Made by a program: the position numbers and the translations under genes. Source: Candidatus Omnitrophota bacterium (lineage in GTDB: Bacteria > Omnitrophota > Gorgyraeia > Gygaellales > Profunditerraquicolaceae). From it: a stretch of DNA of 64,000 nt. Below the pieces are notes generated by a model that had not been told where the DNA came from, searched no databases, and saw nothing but the letters and a program-made list of their open reading frames with translations. Positions 5,496-57,040 of this stretch are shown in pieces (the stretch's first letter is position 1; every line of letters begins with the position of its first letter). Location: the NCBI GenBank assembly GCA_049275655.1, contig JBASUY010000020.1, positions 2,651 through 66,650 of the forward strand, written 5' to 3'.

Positions 5496-7139
5496 TTAAT
5501 ACATCCCTCCACCCATTCCGCCCATACCTGCCGGCGGCATAGGAGGCATCTTATCATCCTTTTCTGGTTTATCTGCTATCAAAGCCTCAGTAGTAAGAAG
5601 CAAGGAGGCGATGCTGGATGCATTTTGTAGGGCTGAACGGGTAACTTTTTTAGGGTCAATTACCCCTGCTTCAACCATATCTACGTAATCATCCCGAGAA
5701 ACATCATATCCAACATTGGTCTTTTCTTGCTTTATGCGCTGAACCACGACAGAACCCTCTAATCCTGCGTTCTCGGTAATCTGCCTGATTGGCTCTTCTA
5801 AGGCGCGCTTGATTATATCAACTCCGACCTTCTCATCTCCTTCAAGCTTTAGTTTATCTAAAACAGGGATACAGCGGATTAAAGCAACTCCTCCACCGGG
5901 AATAATCCCTTCCTCTACTGCCGCGCGTGTGGCATGCAAGGCATCCTCTACGCGGGCTTTCTTTTCTTTCATTTCGCTTTCAGTAGCCGCGCCTACGTTA
6001 ATAACTGCTACTCCGCCTGCAAGTTTAGCTAAACGCTCCTGCAGTTTTTCTTTATCATAATCAGAGTCAGTTTCATCAATCTGTTTTTTGATCTGCGCTA
6101 CGCGTGCGCTTACTGCGGCTTGCTTTCCTGCGCCTTCTACGATAGTAGTATTCTCCTTGTCAATCTTTACTTTTTTAGCTTTGCCTAAGTCATTAAGGTC
6201 AACACTCTCTAATTTAATCCCTAAATCCTCAGTTAAAGCCTTTCCACCGGTTAATATGGCGATATCTTCAAGCATTGCTTTGCGCCTATCTCCATAGCCA
6301 GGGGCTTTTACTGCACAAGAAACAAATGTGCCTTTTAGCTTATTGACTACTAAGGTTGCAAGAGCCTCTCCTTCTACCTCCTCGGCAATAATCAAGAGGG
6401 GCTTTCCGGTGCGCGCTATCTTCTCTAATAAAGGAAGAAGGTCTTTTAAAGAGGATATCTTCTTTTCGTGTATTAAAATATAGGTATCCTCTAAGATGCA
6501 CTCCATTCTCTCTGCGTCAGTGACAAAATAAGGGGATAGATAGCCTTGGTCAAATTGCATGCCTTCTACTAACTCTAAGGTAGTTGCAGTAGTCTTAGCT
6601 TCTTCTACGGTAATTACTCCGTCTTTGCCTACCTTATCCATTGCCTCGGATATTTGGTCGCCTATGGCGCTATCGCCATTTGCCGCAATTGAAGCAACCT
6701 GAGCTACCTCTTTCTTTTCTCTGGCATTAATGGGCTTTGCTAATTTACCCAACTCTTCTGCCACCTTTTCTACTGCTTTTTCAATCCCACGCTTTAAGGC
6801 CATAGGGTTAGCTCCGGCAGTAACATTCTTTAAACCTTCGCGGTATATCGCTTCAGCTAAAACCGTAGCTGTAGTAGTTCCATCACCAGCTACATCAGAG
6901 GTCTTTTCAGCTACCTCCTTTACCATCTGTGCGCCCATATTTTCATAAGGGTCTTCTAGCTCTATCTCCTTGGCGACGGTTACCCCGTCTTTGGTGATTG
7001 TAGGAGAGCCGAATTTTTTGTCAATTACTACATTACGCCCCTTTGGTCCTAAGGTAACTTTTACTGCGCGGGCTAGTTGTTCTACTCCGCTTAAAAGTTT
7101 TCTGCGGCCTTCATCTTGATATAACAGCTGCTTACTCAT
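5496..7139 (-). CDS. groL: Chaperonin GroEL (Cpn60)
   Basis: 547 aa with characteristic GroEL sequence throughout and a C-terminal GGM repeat tail ([10 protein letters not shown]). Confidence 0.97.
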
Positions 7140-7481: not shown

Positions 7482-7508
7482 TTAGCACTTTTCTCCTAAG
7501 AGTGCTAA
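7482..7508 (-). promoter_or_regulatory. CIRCE element (HrcA operator) upstream of groES
   Basis: TTAGCACTT-N9-GAGTGCTAA, versus the consensus TTAGCACTC-N9-GAGTGCTAA. It overlaps the -10 of the groESL promoter. Confidence 0.85.
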
Positions 7509-7535
7509 TTATAAATAAAAAAAAATTCTTGTCAA
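7507..7535 (-). promoter_or_regulatory. sigma70-type promoter of groESL
   Basis: On the minus strand: TTGACA (7535..7530), 17-nt spacer, ATAATT (7512..7507). Immediately followed by CIRCE. Confidence 0.6.
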
Positions 7536-49644: not shown

Positions 49645-49740
49645 AGTATTATCCTAACTCTATATTTATACTCTATTGAAAAATTATATTATCATTTTAA
49701 GAGGCAAAAGTCAATAATCTAATAAAATAAAATAATTATG

Positions 49741-49768
49741 TGGACAAAATTTTAAAATTATGTAAAAT
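49741..49768 (+). promoter_or_regulatory. sigma70-like promoter abutting the start codon of the 1072-aa gene (leaderless configuration)
   Basis: TGGACA (49741-49746), 16 nt, TAAAAT (49763-49768), then only 8 nt before ATG at 49777. No SD. Confidence 0.4.
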
Positions 49769-49776
49769 GAAATAAC

Positions 49777-52700
49777 ATGATTAAAGAAACTAACAAAAAA
49801 CCAAAGTATCTTCTTAATAAAGAGGGCGCATTTGTAATTAAAAATTATAATTTCTCTAAGCCCTTCTCTAGTTTTTTACCCGGGATAGCCGGTAGATACG
49901 GCATACCTATGTGGGCCTTCTATGTAAACCGCGCTCAATGTATTTCAAGCTTTGGGATAAAAGATAAAGACCACGCGATACTAGAGTTCTTCCCCGCTAA
50001 TAAGGCATGGCAATCTGTTTCTACGCACGGGTTCAGGACTTTCTTAAAAGTCAGTAAAAATAATAAGGACTTTTTTTATGAGCCCTTCCATAACGGATTT
50101 ACGAATCTTTCTTATAAAATAACAAATAGGATATATATCCTGCCTTATGAATTAACTATTGAAGAAGAGAACAAAACCTTAAATCTTGTTACCAGAATTA
50201 AATATTTTAATATCCCCAATGACAACTACGCCGGATTAGCTAGGATAGTAGAACTAAAAAACCTGAATAAAAACTTAATAAAAATAGAGCTCCTTGACGG
50301 GCTGCCTCAAATTGTCCCTTATGGAACTAATAACTATTGCCTTAAAAAAATGTCGCGCACGATTGAGGCGTGGATGGGGGTTGAAAACCTTAAGAATAAC
50401 GCCCCCTTTTATAGGCTTACAGTTGACCCTGCTGACCGGCCAGAGATAGTCCACATAAAAGAAGGCAACTTTTATTTAGGTTTTAGTTCTGAAGCCAAAA
50501 AAACAAAGCTAATCAAACCTATCATTAATCCGGATAATATATTCGGCCCGATTACTGATTTTTCTTGCCCAAGGTTATTCTTAAGCAAAGATTTTTCTCC
50601 CCCGCAAAATGAAACTATACAAAGTAAAACCCCTTCTGCTTTTATATACTCTTCTTTTAGCCTAAAGCAAAATGAAAATAAAAAGCTCTACGCTCTAAGC
50701 GGCTATATGCGTAGCCTAAAAGACCTTAACAACTCCTTAAAGAGGCTCTCTTCTCCTGCCTACATTGAATCTAAAAGAATTGAAAATATGAAATTAATAA
50801 ATAGCTTACTTGAAAATGTCAGGACAAACTCATCTTCAAGAGAGTTTAACCTCTATTCTCAACAGACTTACTTAGATAATATATTACGCGGCGGGTATCC
50901 GGTTATGTTTGCGCAAAACAAGCCTTTCTATCTTTATTCGCGCAAGCACGGCGATCCTGAAAGAGATTACAATAAGTTTCAAATTTCTCCAACATACCTC
51001 TCCCAAGGCAATGGCAATTACCGGGACTTAAACCAAAACCGCAGGAACGAAGTTTGGTTTAATCCTAAGATAAAAGAAAAAGACTTACTCTCGTTATTTA
51101 ATCTTATCCAACTCGACGGATTTAACCCTTTAGTGACAAAGGGTACGCGTTTTATCTTACAGGATGCGCAAAAGATACGAACAAAACTCGCTCAATTTAC
51201 TAAAAAAGAAAACGTAGATAAAATCCTTCTTGCCTTTACAGGAAAAAGGTTTTCTCCTGGTGAGATAATTCATTTTATTGAAGATAATCAAATAAAACTA
51301 ACCTCTTCTTATGATGAGTTGTTAGATATTATTGTCTCTTGTTCCTTAGAGATAAATGAAGCAGAACATTTAGAAGGTTTTTGGATTGACCATTGGCATT
51401 ATAATTTAGACCTTCTTGATAGCTACCTTGCTATTTACCCGGAAAAAGCAAAAGAGATATTCTTTGAAAAAAGGGAATTTACCTTCTTTGATAATGACAG
51501 AGTAGTAAAACCAAGGAAAGAAAAATATATTCTTCATAATGGCCTCCCGCGTCAACTACATGCAGTTACTATAGACCTTAATAAAAAAGAGATCCTAAGC
51601 AAAAGGAAAACTGCTCCTAATATAGCGCGCACAGAGGGCGGTTTTGGGGATATTTATCAAACAACCCTCATAAATAAGCTTCTATGCCTCTTGGTTAATA
51701 AGTATGCCTCCCTTGACTCTTTTGGCGTAGGAGTTGAGATGGAATCAGATAAGCCTAATTGGTTTGATTCTTTAAATGGGCTACCTGCTATATTCGGCTC
51801 TTCCCTCTCAGAGACCTTTGAGCTAAAACGATTAGCGCTCTATATCAAAAACTCTATAAATTTAACCCCTACAGAAGGTATCTTCGTTACGGAAGAGATT
51901 TACAGGCTTTTAGAAAAATTATACGTTTTAACTAAAGAATATTTTAATAAGACACTAAGTGACTTTCAATGGTGGGATGAGACGCATTTAGCGAAAGAGT
52001 CTTATTGGTCAGATACAAAAATGGGAGTTAAGGGAAAAGAGTTAAATATACCTTCAAAGGACTTAAGCCAGATCGTTAATTTATTTATAAAGAAAATTGA
52101 TATAGGCATAGATAAGGCTTGGGATAAAAAATCCTCTGTATATAGAGGTTATTTTTTCCATGAAGTTACCAAATACGAAAGGCTAAAAGATAATTTCATA
52201 AAACCTCTATCTTTTAAGCAGATTACCTTGCCCTTATTCCTTGAGCCGCAGATGCATGGCTTACGCCTTGCAGAAAACCAAGCTAAAGCTAAAGCCCTAT
52301 ATAAAGGGGTAAAAAGAAGCGCTCTCTTTGATAAAAAACTATCTATGTATAAAGTAACTGCTTCGCTTAAACCTATGCCTGAGGAGATTGGTAGATGCAG
52401 GGTATTCCCTTCCGGCTGGCTTGAGAATGAATCTGTATGGCTACATATGGAGTATAAGTATCTCCTTGAATTACTAAAACAAGGGCTTTATGAAGAGTTT
52501 TACCAGGATTTTAAAAAAGCCCTTATACCTTTTCAGGACCCAAAAAGATACGGGCGAAGCATCCTTGAAAACTCTTCTTTCCTTGTAAGTAGCGCTTTCC
52601 CTGATAAAACTTTACATGGAAATGGGTTTGTTGCCCGGCTATCCGGCTCTACAGCAGAATTTTTAGATATCTGGCTTAAGATTAACCTTGGGATAAAACC

Positions 52701-52995
52701 CTTCTTTATAACCGGTAATAATACCCTTAACCTCTGCTTTAAACCTATATTAAATGCCTGGTTATTTGATAAAAATGGAAATTATTCTTTTAATTTCTTA
52801 AGCAAGATAAAGGTTGCCTATCACAATCCTGCCAAAAAGAATACCTACGGCAAAAACTCAGCTAAAGTCCAATATATAACTTTTAAAGACAACAACGGGC
52901 TTTTAATCAAAATAAACTCAGATACAATCAAATCCCCTTACGCAGAACAAATCCGCTTAGGTAAAATCAATCAGATAGATATCCATTTAAAATAA
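49777..52995 (+). CDS. Large cytoplasmic protein, putative six-hairpin glycoside hydrolase/phosphorylase (GH94-like)
   Basis: 1072 aa, the only plus-strand gene. No Walker or nuclease motifs. Rich in W/Y/F/N/D. The N-terminal LPGIAGRYGIPMWAFYVNRAQC resembles the GH94 sNTAGGYSFYRDA segment and HGFRTF resembles cRHGLGYT. The C-terminal beta-sandwich-like tail supports a glycoside family. The family assignment is low confidence. Confidence 0.35.
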   Translation: MIKETNKKPKYLLNKEGAFVIKNYNFSKPFSSFLPGIAGRYGIPMWAFYVNRAQCISSFGIKDKDHAILEFFPANKAWQSVSTHGFRTFLKVSKNNKDFFYEPFHNGFTNLSYKITNRIYILPYELTIEEENKTLNLVTRIKYFNIPNDNYAGLARIVELKNLNKNLIKIELLDGLPQIVPYGTNNYCLKKMSRTIEAWMGVENLKNNAPFYRLTVDPADRPEIVHIKEGNFYLGFSSEAKKTKLIKPIINPDNIFGPITDFSCPRLFLSKDFSPPQNETIQSKTPSAFIYSSFSLKQNENKKLYALSGYMRSLKDLNNSLKRLSSPAYIESKRIENMKLINSLLENVRTNSSSREFNLYSQQTYLDNILRGGYPVMFAQNKPFYLYSRKHGDPERDYNKFQISPTYLSQGNGNYRDLNQNRRNEVWFNPKIKEKDLLSLFNLIQLDGFNPLVTKGTRFILQDAQKIRTKLAQFTKKENVDKILLAFTGKRFSPGEIIHFIEDNQIKLTSSYDELLDIIVSCSLEINEAEHLEGFWIDHWHYNLDLLDSYLAIYPEKAKEIFFEKREFTFFDNDRVVKPRKEKYILHNGLPRQLHAVTIDLNKKEILSKRKTAPNIARTEGGFGDIYQTTLINKLLCLLVNKYASLDSFGVGVEMESDKPNWFDSLNGLPAIFGSSLSETFELKRLALYIKNSINLTPTEGIFVTEEIYRLLEKLYVLTKEYFNKTLSDFQWWDETHLAKESYWSDTKMGVKGKELNIPSKDLSQIVNLFIKKIDIGIDKAWDKKSSVYRGYFFHEVTKYERLKDNFIKPLSFKQITLPLFLEPQMHGLRLAENQAKAKALYKGVKRSALFDKKLSMYKVTASLKPMPEEIGRCRVFPSGWLENESVWLHMEYKYLLELLKQGLYEEFYQDFKKALIPFQDPKRYGRSILENSSFLVSSAFPDKTLHGNGFVARLSGSTAEFLDIWLKINLGIKPFFITGNNTLNLCFKPILNAWLFDKNGNYSFNFLSKIKVAYHNPAKKNTYGKNSAKVQYITFKDNNGLLIKINSDTIKSPYAEQIRLGKINQIDIHLK

Positions 52996-53026
52996 GGTAT
53001 TTATTAAAAAGGTAGGTAAAAACAGG

Positions 53027-55798
53027 TTAAAATCTGCGGCGATAATATACGCGGACTATGTGTGCGGTATCTATTGTTAGCAGCGCTCCACCCGTAGGAT
53101 CATAGAGCCTTCCGATAGAGCTTGAGTTTCCTTCTCCATACTGGATAGTAAACTCATCATCCTTAGTAGGCATATATCTAAGCTCTGTAAAAATATTGTG
53201 GTGACCGGTTGTTTTAGAGTTCCCATCTCTAACTAAAAGGGGATTCTTCCATAGGGAATAAGTGTATTTAAAACAGAGCCCTAACTTATCTGTAGGCTCA
53301 TAAACCATCTGTAAGCCAAAGTGGTTCATATTATCTGAGTTTTGCCCTGCCATCTTAAACTCATTATAAGTATAATCAAGGTAGATATTGAATTTTTCTA
53401 AAGGAGAGATATCTAAGCCTGCTTTGTAAATATTATAGAACGGATAAGGCGCCTGTGGAAAGAATTCTTGATCATAAAGAAACCTGCCCCAACCGCGATA
53501 CGTATTGCCATATTCAGAATAAGTTCTCCAGAACCCCGCGTCATTAAATACGCCGTTAGGAAAATTACCATAAGCTAAATAATAGTCATTCGTCCTTTCC
53601 CAGACAATATTTGCCTTTAACCACTCTACAAAAGCGTATTCTAACCCTATAGAACCTGTTTTAATGCTTGGATCAGCTCCATCAGGGACAACTTTATTAG
53701 TTAAACCTATATCAGTGTCAATATCAAAATTAAAAGGGTCTATCTCTCCTTTGGTCTTTGGTAGGTCATGATAAAGGAGTAAACCTTTGAGGGTAAGTTT
53801 TTCAAATGGCTTAAACATTATCTCATCACGCACAACAGTCTCAACATACTTGCCATTATTCTTATGCACATTACGTACATCAAAAAGATTTGAGAAGGTA
53901 TCTTCATAAAAAGTCTCAAATCTGAAACCAATAGTACTTCTATCTTTATCTATCCCATCTCCTATACGCGTAGCGTCAAGCTCATCTTGATTAACATAGG
54001 CAGAGCTTAAACCTGGGGTAAAATACCCAAAGTTCTTTCTAAAAGAGATATGCCTTGACCAAAAATCATCATCCCGCGTATCACGGTAATTAGAAAGAGG
54101 GGCATCAAAACCCCTATCCATCCTGGCAATAAAAAATTTACTCTTTGCCATAAATGATTCGTCTTTAGCTATTTTAGATTCATTATAAGCATCAGTAAGA
54201 ACTATAAGCTCTTTTTGAGGATAACGGTTAATAAGCGTAAAATAATAAGCATTTCCGCGTGCCTTAGTCTTGTATTGGGAGTCAAGCTGATCATAGTAAG
54301 ATTGCGACCTTAAGACTTCTGCTTGAGCCTTAACTCCTTCAATAATCTCATAGCTTAAATCCATCCCACCTACATAATTTGTGCTATCAACCTTGTTTTT
54401 ATCATTAATATTTAATCCGGTGCGTGTAGTAAATGTAGCCCCTAAAGATAGATTATCCGCAGCAAAGTGCTTTAACCTACTTGCAGTAATATAATTATCC
54501 ACCTCTTCATAATCCTGCCAGAGATCTTTAGGTGTGGCTACAGTAGTAGTAAATAACGTCTTCTCTGCTGAGCCAAGCTCAAAAGAAAACCCCCTTAAAG
54601 CAGTAAGGTATTTTCCTGTGCTATCCCGTATTGTAGAATAGGTATCATCCCAGATACCCTTAGTATAATCCAATGCACCCGGGTCTGAGTTATATCTACC
54701 CGGAGAATACCTTTTAAGCCAGGGACTGGGTGCCCACCATTTATGGTGATTAGTTATACGCAAAGGATCGTCTGAAGTAAATGCCTGATCCTGATAAGCA
54801 ATCGGGAAAACCCGGAATTTCACTCCGGCATCCTCATTCATATAATCAAGCCAAAATTCCCTAACCGGTTGAAACCTACGATGAATTTTCGTTTCAGGAA
54901 TTACAAAAATGTTGCCAAAAGAAGAGGTAACTGTAGTAGGAAGCACCCTTCCGTTAACTACCTTTATTTCAGGAAGGTTAAATACATCCCCGCTAATTGA
55001 GGTAAAAACCCTATCATTTAAAGTATAGCCTGTATTCGACCAATACCTTAATTCAACATCAGCAGTATCCCCCCATATCCCCCCGGTAATATTAAATTTG
55101 CTGCTCTTACCAGTAAAACTCCAAGGATCAATGGTTATGTTACTATGAAAACTAAATCCGGATTTATTCTCTGTATCAAGGTTTATTGAAAGGCTATCAT
55201 AAACCCTGGTATCAAATGTATTCCATCTTTGATTATAAGCCGCATCTGATAAAACGCGCCAGTTCCTTTCATTTAAATCATAGTTAGCGCGCTTCCATAT
55301 AAAATTACCCGGAGACTCAACCCCAAAAGAAAGCATCGCCTCTCCGGTTACACGTATACCGCCTAATAAAAAACCCCTTGTTTTATCTTCAGTTAAAGGT
55401 TCAATTGTATCCTTAGGCTCTAAATCAGAGAATGCCTTCTCCATCGCCTCTTCTTTAGTATGTATATTATTCAAATCTTTGCTATTAGGGACAAGGGCCT
55501 CTTCCTGGGGATGGGTTTGGGGTTCTTTTGGAATATAAGATTGTGGCTTTTGTAATTGGTCCTTATTTTTAAAGATACGGCTTACATATTCTTTGGCAGT
55601 TTTATTTTCAGGGTCTGCAGCAAGGACTTTTTGAAACTCAGATAAGGCATCATCGTATTTTTCAAGGTTATAAAGCTCTACCCCTAATTCACACAAATAT
55701 TCTACTGCCAAAGTCTCTGCTATAGATAAAGACGGAATTAAAAAAAATAAAGCGCCTAAAAGCATAAGCGCCATAACAAGAATATATTTATTTTTCAT
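53027..55798 (-). CDS. Putative outer-membrane beta-barrel protein with N-terminal TPR-like hairpin
   Basis: 923 aa. Signal peptide MKNKYILVMALMLLGALFFLIPSLSIA. One TPR-like helical pair (LYNLEKYDDALSEFQKVLAADPEN), an acidic linker, then ~800 aa of aromatic, Gly, Asn and Asp-rich beta-type sequence ending in a C-terminal Phe (VRVYYRRRF). Confidence 0.5.
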   Translation of the reverse strand: MKNKYILVMALMLLGALFFLIPSLSIAETLAVEYLCELGVELYNLEKYDDALSEFQKVLAADPENKTAKEYVSRIFKNKDQLQKPQSYIPKEPQTHPQEEALVPNSKDLNNIHTKEEAMEKAFSDLEPKDTIEPLTEDKTRGFLLGGIRVTGEAMLSFGVESPGNFIWKRANYDLNERNWRVLSDAAYNQRWNTFDTRVYDSLSINLDTENKSGFSFHSNITIDPWSFTGKSSKFNITGGIWGDTADVELRYWSNTGYTLNDRVFTSISGDVFNLPEIKVVNGRVLPTTVTSSFGNIFVIPETKIHRRFQPVREFWLDYMNEDAGVKFRVFPIAYQDQAFTSDDPLRITNHHKWWAPSPWLKRYSPGRYNSDPGALDYTKGIWDDTYSTIRDSTGKYLTALRGFSFELGSAEKTLFTTTVATPKDLWQDYEEVDNYITASRLKHFAADNLSLGATFTTRTGLNINDKNKVDSTNYVGGMDLSYEIIEGVKAQAEVLRSQSYYDQLDSQYKTKARGNAYYFTLINRYPQKELIVLTDAYNESKIAKDESFMAKSKFFIARMDRGFDAPLSNYRDTRDDDFWSRHISFRKNFGYFTPGLSSAYVNQDELDATRIGDGIDKDRSTIGFRFETFYEDTFSNLFDVRNVHKNNGKYVETVVRDEIMFKPFEKLTLKGLLLYHDLPKTKGEIDPFNFDIDTDIGLTNKVVPDGADPSIKTGSIGLEYAFVEWLKANIVWERTNDYYLAYGNFPNGVFNDAGFWRTYSEYGNTYRGWGRFLYDQEFFPQAPYPFYNIYKAGLDISPLEKFNIYLDYTYNEFKMAGQNSDNMNHFGLQMVYEPTDKLGLCFKYTYSLWKNPLLVRDGNSKTTGHHNIFTELRYMPTKDDEFTIQYGEGNSSSIGRLYDPTGGALLTIDTAHIVRVYYRRRF

Positions 55799-55807
55799 AA
55801 TATTTTT

Positions 55808-55835
55808 ATTATATATAGGTAAAGCCCTTTGTCAA
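55808..55835 (-). promoter_or_regulatory. Consensus sigma70 promoter directly abutting the OMP gene start (leaderless configuration)
   Basis: Minus strand: TTGACA (55835..55830), 16 nt, TATAAT (55813..55808), 9 nt, ATG at 55798. Confidence 0.5.
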
Positions 55836-55857
55836 GATTTTTTTGCTCTTAAAAAAA

Positions 55858-56187
55858 TTAAACTACTTCCTGAGGAGATGAAACGAGGGTTATCTTTAAG
55901 GTGTGCATAAAGGCTATTAAAAAAAGCCTACCACGGTTTACCGCAAGTACGCTTCCTTTTAGCTTACAAAAAAACTTTTGTCTCTGCTCTTTTGTATCCT
56001 GCTCTTTTAAAACACAAAGAGATGGTTTTGGTTTTTCTATATCCGGATTAGAGACCTCTTTGACTATATATATAAAATGGCGACGGATAACGCTGCGCAC
56101 CCCTTCTTTTTCAGTAATCTCTGAAGAAGATACCACCCTTTTTCTACGGTCGTTAGAGGTTAAGTTTTTAAATAAGAGATTGCGCAT
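55858..56187 (-). CDS. Hypothetical small basic protein (109 aa from the internal ATG). Coding status uncertain.
   Basis: ATG at 56187 preceded by GAAAGGG plus a 4-5 nt spacer. The product MRNLLFKNLTSNDRRKRVV... is Lys/Arg-rich with no recognisable domain. It lies in the long intergenic island. Confidence 0.25.
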   Translation of the reverse strand: MRNLLFKNLTSNDRRKRVVSSSEITEKEGVRSVIRRHFIYIVKEVSNPDIEKPKPSLCVLKEQDTKEQRQKFFCKLKGSVLAVNRGRLFLIAFMHTLKITLVSSPQEVV

Positions 56188-56195
56188 TTTACCCT

Positions 56196-56339
56196 TTCTA
56201 CGATGACCCCCTAAAACCGGGTTGCCGTTTAACCCTACCAAAACTAGGCAACCCGGCGTTTTCCCCTTATGGCTGGCGGGGTCTTAAAACTTTTTTAAAT
56301 TGTAAAAGAAGTAGTTATAAAAATATTTTTTGCTCTTTT
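56196..56339 (-). ncRNA. Candidate structured RNA / 5' leader transcribed from the 56347-56375 promoter
   Basis: Minus-strand transcript with an AT-rich 5' part followed by a GC-rich nested hairpin: GACCCC-GCCAGCCATAA-GGGG, then GCCGGGTTGCC-N20-GGCAACCCGG-TTTT, then GGGGTC. The GACCCC/GGGGTC segments can pair either locally or across the whole element. Confidence 0.3.
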
Positions 56340-56346
56340 CAATTAA

Positions 56347-56375
56347 AGTATAAATTACTAAAGGTAGCCTTTCAA
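56347..56375 (-). promoter_or_regulatory. Near-consensus sigma70 promoter in the intergenic island
   Basis: Minus strand: TTGAAA (56375..56370), 17 nt, TATACT (56352..56347). Confidence 0.5.
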
Positions 56376-56407
56376 GGGGTTTAGAGCAAAAAAAGAAAGC
56401 GTTTGCT

Positions 56408-57040
56408 TTATCTTTTAAAAGATAGGCGCGGCTCTTCGCCTTTTATCAGGCGTTTAAGGTTAGATTTGTGACGGAGAATTATAAAAACCGAGAGAAGAAA
56501 ACTAATTATAATTATTGATAAAGGTAGTTTTAATATAAGAATAAAAAGAGGAAAAGTTAGGGCTGCTAAGATAGATGAGAGAGATATTATTCTAAAGAAG
56601 ATAAAACTAACCACCCAAATTAAAACTATTAAGGCAAGCGCTATCTTTAAGCCTTGAATTTTAAAACTAAGGGCAAGTAAAACCCCCAAGGTAGTAGCAA
56701 CCCCTTTACCTCCTTTAAACTTTAAAAAAAGTGTCCAATTATGTCCACAAATAGCACAAAACCCTATGATAATCAATAAGTTATGTTCCTGAATAAAACT
56801 TATCCTATCAGAAATTAAAGTTCCTAAAAAGAATACAGGTAAGAATCCTTTTAAGATATCAAGGAATAATACACTAAAACCCCACCCCTTCCCTAAAATC
56901 CTCAAAGCATTGGTGGCGCCTACATTTCCTGAGCCTGTTTTACGGATATCAATTCCTTTTATAATGCGGACGAATAAATAGGCAGTTGGAATAGACCCGA
57001 TAATATAACTAACGATTATTAGAAGAATTATCAGGAGCAT
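56408..57040 (-). CDS. plsY: Glycerol-3-phosphate acyltransferase PlsY
   Basis: IIGSIPTAYL...GSGNVGATNALR are the PlsY motifs. Start set at the internal MLLIILL. Confidence 0.85.
   Translation of the reverse strand: MLLIILLIIVSYIIGSIPTAYLFVRIIKGIDIRKTGSGNVGATNALRILGKGWGFSVLFLDILKGFLPVFFLGTLISDRISFIQEHNLLIIIGFCAICGHNWTLFLKFKGGKGVATTLGVLLALSFKIQGLKIALALIVLIWVVSFIFFRIISLSSILAALTFPLFILILKLPLSIIIISFLLSVFIILRHKSNLKRLIKGEEPRLSFKR

Follow-up and report, generated by a model that had tools for sequence, protein, structure and literature searches.

A convergent gene pair of an uncultured Omnitrophota bacterium with a proposed role in beta-1,3-glucan utilisation

In a stretch of 64,000 nucleotides (nt) from a Candidatus Omnitrophota bacterium (contig JBASUY010000020.1; hereafter the window), two genes converge upon each other, with an open reading frame (ORF) of 1072 amino acids (aa) at 49777..52995 on the plus strand and one of 923 aa at 53027..55798 on the minus strand. 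I propose that they encode the cytoplasmic and the outer-membrane end, respectively, of a pathway for the utilisation of laminarin-type beta-1,3-glucan, a reading to which I give a probability of roughly 0.55. The 1072-aa protein is, as judged from its sequence, a full-length phosphorylase of glycoside hydrolase family 161 (GH161) with an intact active site and predicted activity, and the 923-aa protein (the outer-membrane protein, OMP) is, according to its structural model, a Sec-exported outer-membrane beta-barrel without a close solved relative. With moderate confidence I take the OMP to be a putative uptake channel for beta-1,3-glucan, and not an exporter of the PgaA/BcsC type. In the proposed pathway, beta-1,3-gluco-oligosaccharides would enter the periplasm through the barrel, as gene neighbourhoods suggest; they would then cross the inner membrane via an ATP-binding cassette (ABC) system, which is encoded beside homologues in other clades and not in the window, and GH161 would finally phosphorolyse them in the cytoplasm to glucose-1-phosphate and a shorter chain.

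The phosphorylase and the outer-membrane barrel

A phmmer search of the Protein Data Bank (PDB) aligns aa 15-1069 of the plus-strand protein with solved GH161 chains (E = 4.5e-241, 805 bits), namely 9qqk and 9sr2, which are deposited as 'GH161 phosphorylase / GH161A', and 9h8v; a literature search found no paper for these entries. The GH149 chain 6hq6 is a far weaker match (E = 8.9e-19), and the NCBIfam model of GH149 is matched only in part, with 104 bits against a cut-off of 1150. The preliminary description of this DNA had called the protein GH94-like and had looked to Pfam and similar profile searches for its family. Pfam has no model that matches it at all, and it is the PDB match that places the protein in a carbohydrate-active family. 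The Pfam models Glyco_hydro_94 and GH94_b-supersand find nothing in it at E-values up to 1, whereas the true GH94 genes of three distant loci discussed below (L083, L085 and L086) do match Pfam GH94 models. The earlier label is therefore right as to the clan, GH-Q, which comprises GH161, GH94 and GH149, and wrong as to the family. More than 3000 homologues were found, the nearest of them annotated 'cellobiose phosphorylase [Candidatus Omnitrophota]'.

Enzymes of GH161 convert a beta-1,3-gluco-oligosaccharide and phosphate to glucose-1-phosphate and a shorter chain. The family was defined as one of beta-1,3-glucan phosphorylases by Kuhaudomlarp et al. (PMC6484121). Mutagenesis of a member from Thermosipho africanus, THA_1941, showed R345, R373, D625 and E840 to be essential, with further contacts made by W623, N624, S891 and S913 (preprint 10.1101/2025.04.05.647330). 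The counterparts in the window protein, assigned by motif and spacing and not by direct alignment, are R389 (SRKHGD), R416 (GNYRD), W662 and D664 (PNWFD), E883 (WLENE), S934 (ENSSF) and S956 (RLSGST); all of these, together with P660, are invariant in 34 aligned sequences, among them a homologue of 44% identity. With a hydrophilic N-terminus that lacks a signal peptide, the enzyme is cytoplasmic. By itself this assignment is routine annotation, adding a fresh member to a known family.

The OMP was modelled with AlphaFold2 on 50 homologues (predicted local distance difference test, pLDDT, 75.7; predicted template modelling score, pTM, 0.69). The model consists of a signal-peptide helix, three helices within aa 25-82, amounting to about 1.5 TPRs (tetratricopeptide repeats), a disordered linker and an all-beta region of aa 143-922, in which about 26-30 long strands can be counted from the DSSP string, besides a group of short strands inserted at aa 228-310. 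Aromatic residues make up 15.8% of the barrel region and 8.5% of the other proteins of the window; the linker (aa 83-140) contains 22% D+E and 12% P, and the chain ends in ...VRVYYRRRF. Both the signal peptide (consensus ...AFA/Q) and the C-terminal ...YYRR[KR]F are conserved in the family. The description as a secreted outer-membrane barrel with one TPR-like element and a linker has held up well, with signal peptide, all-beta model of the C-terminal region, terminal F and composition all in agreement.

Searches of Pfam, NCBIfam and the PDB with the OMP sequence yielded a single TPR at aa 33-65 as the sole feature, and the PDB returned nothing beyond designed or natural TPRs. When the model was compared with solved structures by Foldseek, the matches included SusC, PelB, AlgE, maltoporin, ushers, LptD and Deinococcus SlpA, at TM-scores of 0.29 or less; SlpA and LptD are among the best global scores (TMq 0.28-0.29). 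TonB-dependent transporters are the top structural matches, but at TM-scores of 0.21-0.24 with 200-330 residues aligned. Such transporters carry a plug with the TonB box inside a barrel of 22 strands. The OMP matches neither Plug nor TonB_dep_Rec, and a TPR and a disordered linker precede its barrel; for want of a plug I do not regard it as a TonB-dependent transporter or SusC. It is likewise not a porin of the PgaA/BcsC/PelB/AlgE type, because it has a single TPR, and in size its barrel is roughly double the 16-18-strand barrels of that group.

One search returned 469 OMP homologues, nearly all in metagenome-assembled genomes (MAGs) of Omnitrophota and some labelled 'Planctomycetales', and an exhaustive profile search of 1.84 billion representatives gave 133 clusters at E below 1e-30. 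The OMP belongs to an uncharacterised, Omnitrophota-specific family of large barrels. Many MAGs that bear the locus (L003, L005, L006, L014, L017 and others) are titled 'uncultured Planctomycetales/Planctomycetia bacterium', labels that are probably coarse or wrong, since gene content and synteny are those of Omnitrophota. Two database proteins have long additional regions in front of a barrel of this family, namely P0311 (2721 aa), with a right-handed beta-helix and CarboxypepD_reg and SdrD_B domains, and P0290 (1490 aa), with a GH116 beta-glucosidase.

Gene neighbourhoods of distant and close relatives

OMP homologues of 28-44% identity sit in sugar-catabolic loci (designated here by L numbers). 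Along one strand of L083, L084 and L085 come a solute-binding protein (SBP) and a pair of ABC permeases, then a small secreted TPR-like protein, a GH-A enzyme followed by two genes for secreted proteins or lipoproteins, another GH-A enzyme, the OMP, a PilZ protein of 642 aa, a protein of about 1000 aa and finally GH94 and ROK. The protein of about 1000 aa has no Pfam match and is GH161 by tblastn, being 42-46% identical over its full length, so that OMP (28-31% identical) and GH161 are co-directional in these three loci and in L080. The core of the locus is shared by L080 and L079; L086 (CP070655.1) holds GH-A, PilZ, GH94 and OMP, L075 a GH116 beta-glucosidase, OMP, ROK and LacI, and L063 two GH-A enzymes, a TPR protein, OMP, ROK and LacI. 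Glycan-active genes adjoin the OMP in 10 of the 13 loci with distant homologues. For the GH-A enzymes the best match among solved structures is GH158 (E = 5e-14), a family of beta-1,3-glucanases (PMC7157763, PMC13195107), and clusters of GH161, GH94 and ABC genes in Gram-positive bacteria have been proposed as beta-glucan catabolic loci (PMC6484121). No glycosyltransferase or synthase domain was found among those flanking genes of the inspected loci that were scanned with Pfam or had precomputed Pfam hits. The earlier suggestion that both proteins are tied to glycan metabolism is upheld by the GH161 identity and by these loci. The link between OMP and GH161 has thus outlasted deep divergence and rearrangement, in surroundings of import and catabolism, and chiefly for this reason I favour uptake over export.

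The PilZ protein of these loci measures 450-650 aa (L083 11425..13353, L084 11593..13539, L085 11675..13603, L086 4430..6367, L080 8320..9666) and joins an N-terminal PilZ domain, which binds cyclic di-GMP (c-di-GMP), to an otherwise unfamiliar C-terminal part with a faint hint of an alpha/alpha-toroid. Its gene lies between the OMP and GH161 homologues in L080 and L083-L085, a placement that suggests control of a glycan utilisation locus by c-di-GMP. I also considered the PilZ protein as a synthase and rejected this, as it has no glycosyltransferase domain and no relative in the PDB. Equally, the small secreted TPR-like protein of the distant loci is not a separate version of the TPR fused to the window OMP, since BLASTP detects no similarity between them (E = 3.9).

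In the window itself the GH161 gene is the only plus-strand ORF that is not nested in a larger minus-strand ORF; among the 52 ORFs of at least 150 aa, the other three on the plus strand are all so nested. The gene had been noticed before as a lone plus-strand gene converging on its neighbour with 31 nt between the stops. The ORF census confirms it, and the genes are arranged alike in two relatives for which gene calls exist, although 'giant' overstates proteins of about 1000 aa. No terminator-like hairpin is present in the gap between the stops. GC skew is negative throughout, and the GC content around the pair is unremarkable (0.33-0.39).

The window's own clade was surveyed through 80 loci from species-representative genomes. 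Its conserved order is pgsA, plsY, a small ORF and the OMP gene on one strand, then the convergent GH161 gene, then gatC and gatA. Among 54 informative loci (OMP identity of at least 46% and enough downstream DNA), the convergent pair is retained in 47, with GH161 at 8-238 nt from the OMP gene, and in one further locus (L055) GH161 lies 2.2 kb away behind an unrelated insertion. The six loci without GH161 hold paralogous OMP copies, and plsY and the small ORF are missing there as well; two of their contexts were annotated, with LpxI and a radical SAM protein in one and IS200 and a helicase in the other, and contain no glycan genes. The notion of an accessory module finds no support here, because the block in which the pair sits is a conserved housekeeping block. 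The insertion in L055 (8850..11070) comprises small ORFs only, one of them of 117 aa, has no obvious link to glycan metabolism and is possibly a small mobile insertion. Measured against GCA_964542785.1, the nearest relative, no gene of the block has diverged more than that of the OMP (80% identity, the others 83-94%, with GH161 at 93%, GatA at 94%, PlsY at 90% and PgsA at 91%), which fits a surface-exposed protein that may be under faster or diversifying evolution.

Several observations weigh against a dedicated glucan pathway. The 64-kb window contains neither a glucanase nor an ABC importer nor a GH94 gene, and homologues of the GH158-like, lipoprotein and PilZ genes are absent from it too; the GH161 and OMP genes, being convergent, are not co-transcribed. 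The structure model of the OMP is only moderately confident, its strand count being an estimate from the DSSP string, and a TPR followed by a barrel, like a neighbouring PilZ protein, also typifies exopolysaccharide exporters. Within the clade, adjacency of GH161 and OMP co-varies perfectly with the housekeeping block (both present in 39 loci, neither in 4, just one in 0), and for that reason it cannot be told from inherited synteny. Moreover, OMP paralogues of about 50% identity share the promoter described below in unrelated contexts (LpxI, radical SAM, IS200), whence the OMP family may be a general porin family.

The main rival to uptake is accordingly a general, highly abundant major porin or structural protein, perhaps tethering the outer membrane through its TPR and linker, whose place beside the GH161 gene would be coincidental, inherited synteny without functional coupling, the GH161 enzyme serving cytoplasmic beta-glucan or oligosaccharide turnover by itself. 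Such a protein would accord with a promoter as perfect as that of groESL and conserved across species and paralogues, with several paralogues per genome in unrelated surroundings, with an adjacency that the main clade never shows apart from the complete plsY/gatCAB block, with the fastest evolution in that block, as expected of a surface protein, and with the very large barrels of SlpA and LptD among its best global Foldseek scores. I nevertheless consider it somewhat unlikely, as OMP and GH161 are neighbours again, in another order and orientation, in four distant-clade loci, and the glycan-active genes next to most of the distant homologues are hard to explain by it.

In a second alternative the OMP is not a channel for the substrate but serves to anchor glycan-degrading proteins at the surface, or to translocate them; these extracellular proteins would be the GH158-like enzymes and lipoproteins. 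The passenger-like N-terminal regions of P0311 and P0290 and the secreted and lipoprotein genes that flank distant homologues point that way. However, only a 55-aa TPR and the linker precede the barrel of the window OMP, the neighbouring genes of the main clade include no passenger-like partner, and the fusions may be artefacts of gene calling, P0290 in particular being a possible run-through in view of the 38-nt overlap between the GH116 and OMP ORFs of L075; this makes the anchor improbable.

The preliminary description had itself favoured export, through a PgaA/BcsC-type porin, and one may picture an exopolysaccharide module with a PgaA/BcsC/PelB-like OMP in which GH161 acts on or helps to build a secreted beta-1,3-glucan, possibly under c-di-GMP control. 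This was not borne out and seems very improbable to me. The scanned genes of the loci encode no glycosyltransferase or synthase domain, the PilZ protein included, and what they do encode (SBP and ABC permeases, ROK, LacI, GH94, GH116) is catabolic or serves import; the OMP has a single TPR in place of a long TPR solenoid, its barrel region is oversized by a factor of about two for an exporter, and its scores against PelB and AlgE are no better than those against maltoporin or OmpU. Export is unlikely, and it is the general porin against which uptake by the OMP has to be judged.

Promoters and upstream elements

The motif TTGACA-N15-19-TATAAT occurs twice in the 64 kb in perfect form, against 0.10 occurrences expected, once in front of the OMP gene and once upstream of groES/groEL (GroEL 5496..7139), the OMP promoter matching the consensus as well as that of the chaperonin genes (Table 1). 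I scored 50 genes of the window for a promoter match of at least 9/12 with the -10 box ending 5-12 nt before the start codon, and only the GH161 and OMP genes pass (2 of 50). Neither of them has a 4-mer resembling a Shine-Dalgarno (SD) sequence, and many other genes in the window carry GGAG, GAGG or AAGG. The promoter strings and spacings reported earlier for both genes proved exact, as did the contrast between their missing SDs and those of other genes.

Of 66 loci in related genomes, scattered paralogues included, 51 have TTGACA-16-TATAAT or a near match upstream of the OMP gene. Between the -10 box and the ATG lie 9-10 nt in 37 of these 51 loci, and 48 fall within 6-12 nt, the mode being 10 nt. 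A sigma-70 transcript usually starts about 7 nt after the -10 box, and the OMP transcript is therefore predicted to have a leader of 0-4 nt, too short to hold an SD. The distant-clade OMP homologues lie inside operons and have SD-like sequences instead. Upstream of GH161, T[G/T/A]GACA-16-TA[A/C/G]AAT is found in 40 of 42 orthologue loci with a bimodal spacing, of 7-12 nt in 17 of the 40 (among them the window's close relatives) and of 21-28 nt in the other 23. The longer GH161 leaders (L006-L011, L016-L019, L026 and others) contain a conserved, SD-less 'taattaac' / 'ctaataattaactt' element, whereas the sub-lineage of the window has no such leader. Initiation would accordingly be independent of an SD with and without the leader, and a deletion would have given rise to the leaderless form.

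Leaderless-type geometry, as read from promoter positions, is a conserved trait of the OMP gene in about 50 species and a trait of one sub-lineage for the GH161 gene. Leaderless mRNAs had been put forward for both genes; as a prediction from promoters this stands for the OMP gene, for which 48 of 51 strong promoters in other species agree, and for the GH161 gene it is confined to certain lineages. The OMP gene would accordingly combine a sigma-70 promoter of consensus strength with SD-less, leaderless-type initiation, and its product is probably abundant, to judge by the conserved geometry; the GH161 gene of this sub-lineage would have the same geometry with a weaker promoter.

The small ORF between plsY and the OMP gene encodes a conserved protein of 109 aa (MRNLLFKNLTS..., 55858..56187, minus strand) without a Pfam match, which tblastn finds in most plsY-linked loci at 44-85% identity. 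Its leader, at about 56188..56290 (minus strand), has a conserved motif CCCCnCCAGCCA...GGGG, then a GC-rich hairpin of 11 bp (GCCGGGTTGCC / GGCAACCCGGC) and, immediately ahead of the SD, a U-rich tract. Compensatory double changes affect 5 of the 11 base pairs of the hairpin in a comparison of 21 species, and Rfam reports nothing in 55780..56430 upstream of the OMP gene. The leader is a candidate for a new cis-regulatory or attenuator RNA. A promoter-like TTGAAA-17-TATACT upstream of the small ORF (56347..56375, minus strand) and a terminator-like 'AAAGCAAACGCTTTCTTTTT' after plsY (56395..56412, minus strand) have counterparts in many related loci, namely '...ttgaaa...gcatactt' and 'aaacgctttcttttt', respectively.

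Table 1. Positions of the gene pair, the parts of its outer-membrane protein and the associated promoters in the 64-kb window
Feature	Coordinates	Strand	Basis or remark
GH161 beta-1,3-glucan phosphorylase, 1072 aa	49777..52995	+	full-length PDB match; invariant motifs; proposed catalytic Asp664 in PNWFD
Intergenic gap	52996..53026	.	31 nt between convergent stops
OMP beta-barrel region, aa 141-923	53030..55378	-	about 26-30 long strands; short-strand insert aa 228-310; C-terminal beta-signal ...YYRRRF
OMP disordered Pro/Glu/Lys-rich linker, aa 83-140	55379..55552	-	pLDDT below 50; composition
OMP periplasmic three-helix TPR-like module, aa 28-82	55553..55717	-	Pfam TPR_2 and TPR_1 at aa 33-65; model helices 25-44, 48-61, 66-82
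OMP signal peptide, aa 1-27, ...SIA/E	55718..55798	-	direct sequence reading; family consensus ...AFA/Q
Sigma-70-type promoter-like TGGACA-16-TAAAAT	49741..49768	+	-10 ends 8 nt before GH161 ATG; no SD
Perfect consensus promoter TTGACA-16-TATAAT	55808..55835	-	-10 ends 9 nt before OMP ATG; no SD
Other perfect TTGACA-N16-TATAAT	7508..7535	-	upstream of groES/groEL

Relation to known systems and significance

The window enzyme shares its full length, the motifs of the catalytic loop and the phosphate site, and a cytoplasmic location with the GH161 enzymes PapP of Paenibacillus polymyxa and THA_1941. It differs from them in coming from a diderm candidate phylum, and in this clade its gene is not found beside GH1, GH3, GH94 or ABC genes but adjoins an OMP gene, on the opposite strand within a housekeeping block. 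PapP needs acceptors with a degree of polymerisation of at least 2 (PMC6484121), whereas THA_1941 accepts glucose (preprint 10.1101/2025.04.05.647330), and because the two differ in this respect the window enzyme's chain-length specificity is not predictable.

With the GH94-GH161-ABC clusters of Gram-positive bacteria (PMC6484121), L083-L085 have in common an SBP, a pair of permeases that no ATPase gene accompanies, and GH161 and GH94 in tandem. What a diderm needs in addition is present in the Omnitrophota loci, namely the large OMP, GH158-like enzymes that are secreted, lipoproteins and a PilZ protein; of the whole set the window retains OMP and GH161 only. The same logic underlies the beta(1,3)-glucan polysaccharide utilisation loci of Bacteroidota (SusC/SusD with GH158, GH16 and GH3; PMC7157763), with a surface or periplasmic GH158-like endo-beta-1,3-glucanase, putative surface lipoproteins, an outer-membrane transporter and intracellular degradation. 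In contrast to those systems, the outer-membrane component in Omnitrophota is not a TonB-dependent SusC, since it matches neither Plug nor TonB_dep_Rec and leaves no space for a plug ahead of the barrel, no SusD was found, and breakdown would proceed by phosphorolysis in the cytoplasm and not by hydrolysis in the periplasm.

The TPR-porin exporters (PgaA, BcsC, PelB, AlgK/AlgE) resemble the OMP in having an N-terminal TPR element before a C-terminal barrel, and the distant OMP loci likewise have a glycoside hydrolase and a PilZ protein nearby. In size the OMP is comparable to LptD, with 26 strands, and Deinococcus SlpA, with 30, and like SlpA it has a non-barrel periplasmic module at its N-terminus and is probably abundant. 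It has no sequence similarity to either, however, and neither the N-terminal jellyroll of LptD nor an SLH domain, and TM-scores below 0.3 give no indication that more than the general fold of a beta-barrel is shared.

Neither this OMP family, nor GH161 or GH158 in Omnitrophota, nor this system turned up in searches of the literature. More tentatively than the pathway itself, I suggest that the OMP may found a new class of Omnitrophota glycan-import channels, of about 28 strands, plug-less and independent of TonB, with a SusC-like role in an undescribed beta-1,3-glucan system (GH158-like enzymes, OMP, ABC importer, GH161 and GH94), and that in one large clade its gene may be constitutive, strong and leaderless.

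Omnitrophota are uncultured, widespread and ultra-small, and their nutrition is debated, with free-living, parasitic and predatory modes of life all under discussion. Laminarin-type beta-1,3-glucans, in turn, are among the most abundant polysaccharides of marine and fresh waters. If GH161 is indeed coupled to a dedicated outer-membrane channel, these glucans would be a core substrate for much of the phylum, and the OMP would represent a new type of outer-membrane glycan transporter beside the specific porins and the TonB-dependent SusC-like transporters. To my knowledge, translation-initiation signals in Omnitrophota have not been studied previously, and the promoter geometry kept over about 50 species is a clear comparative argument that a major envelope protein is translated in the leaderless mode.

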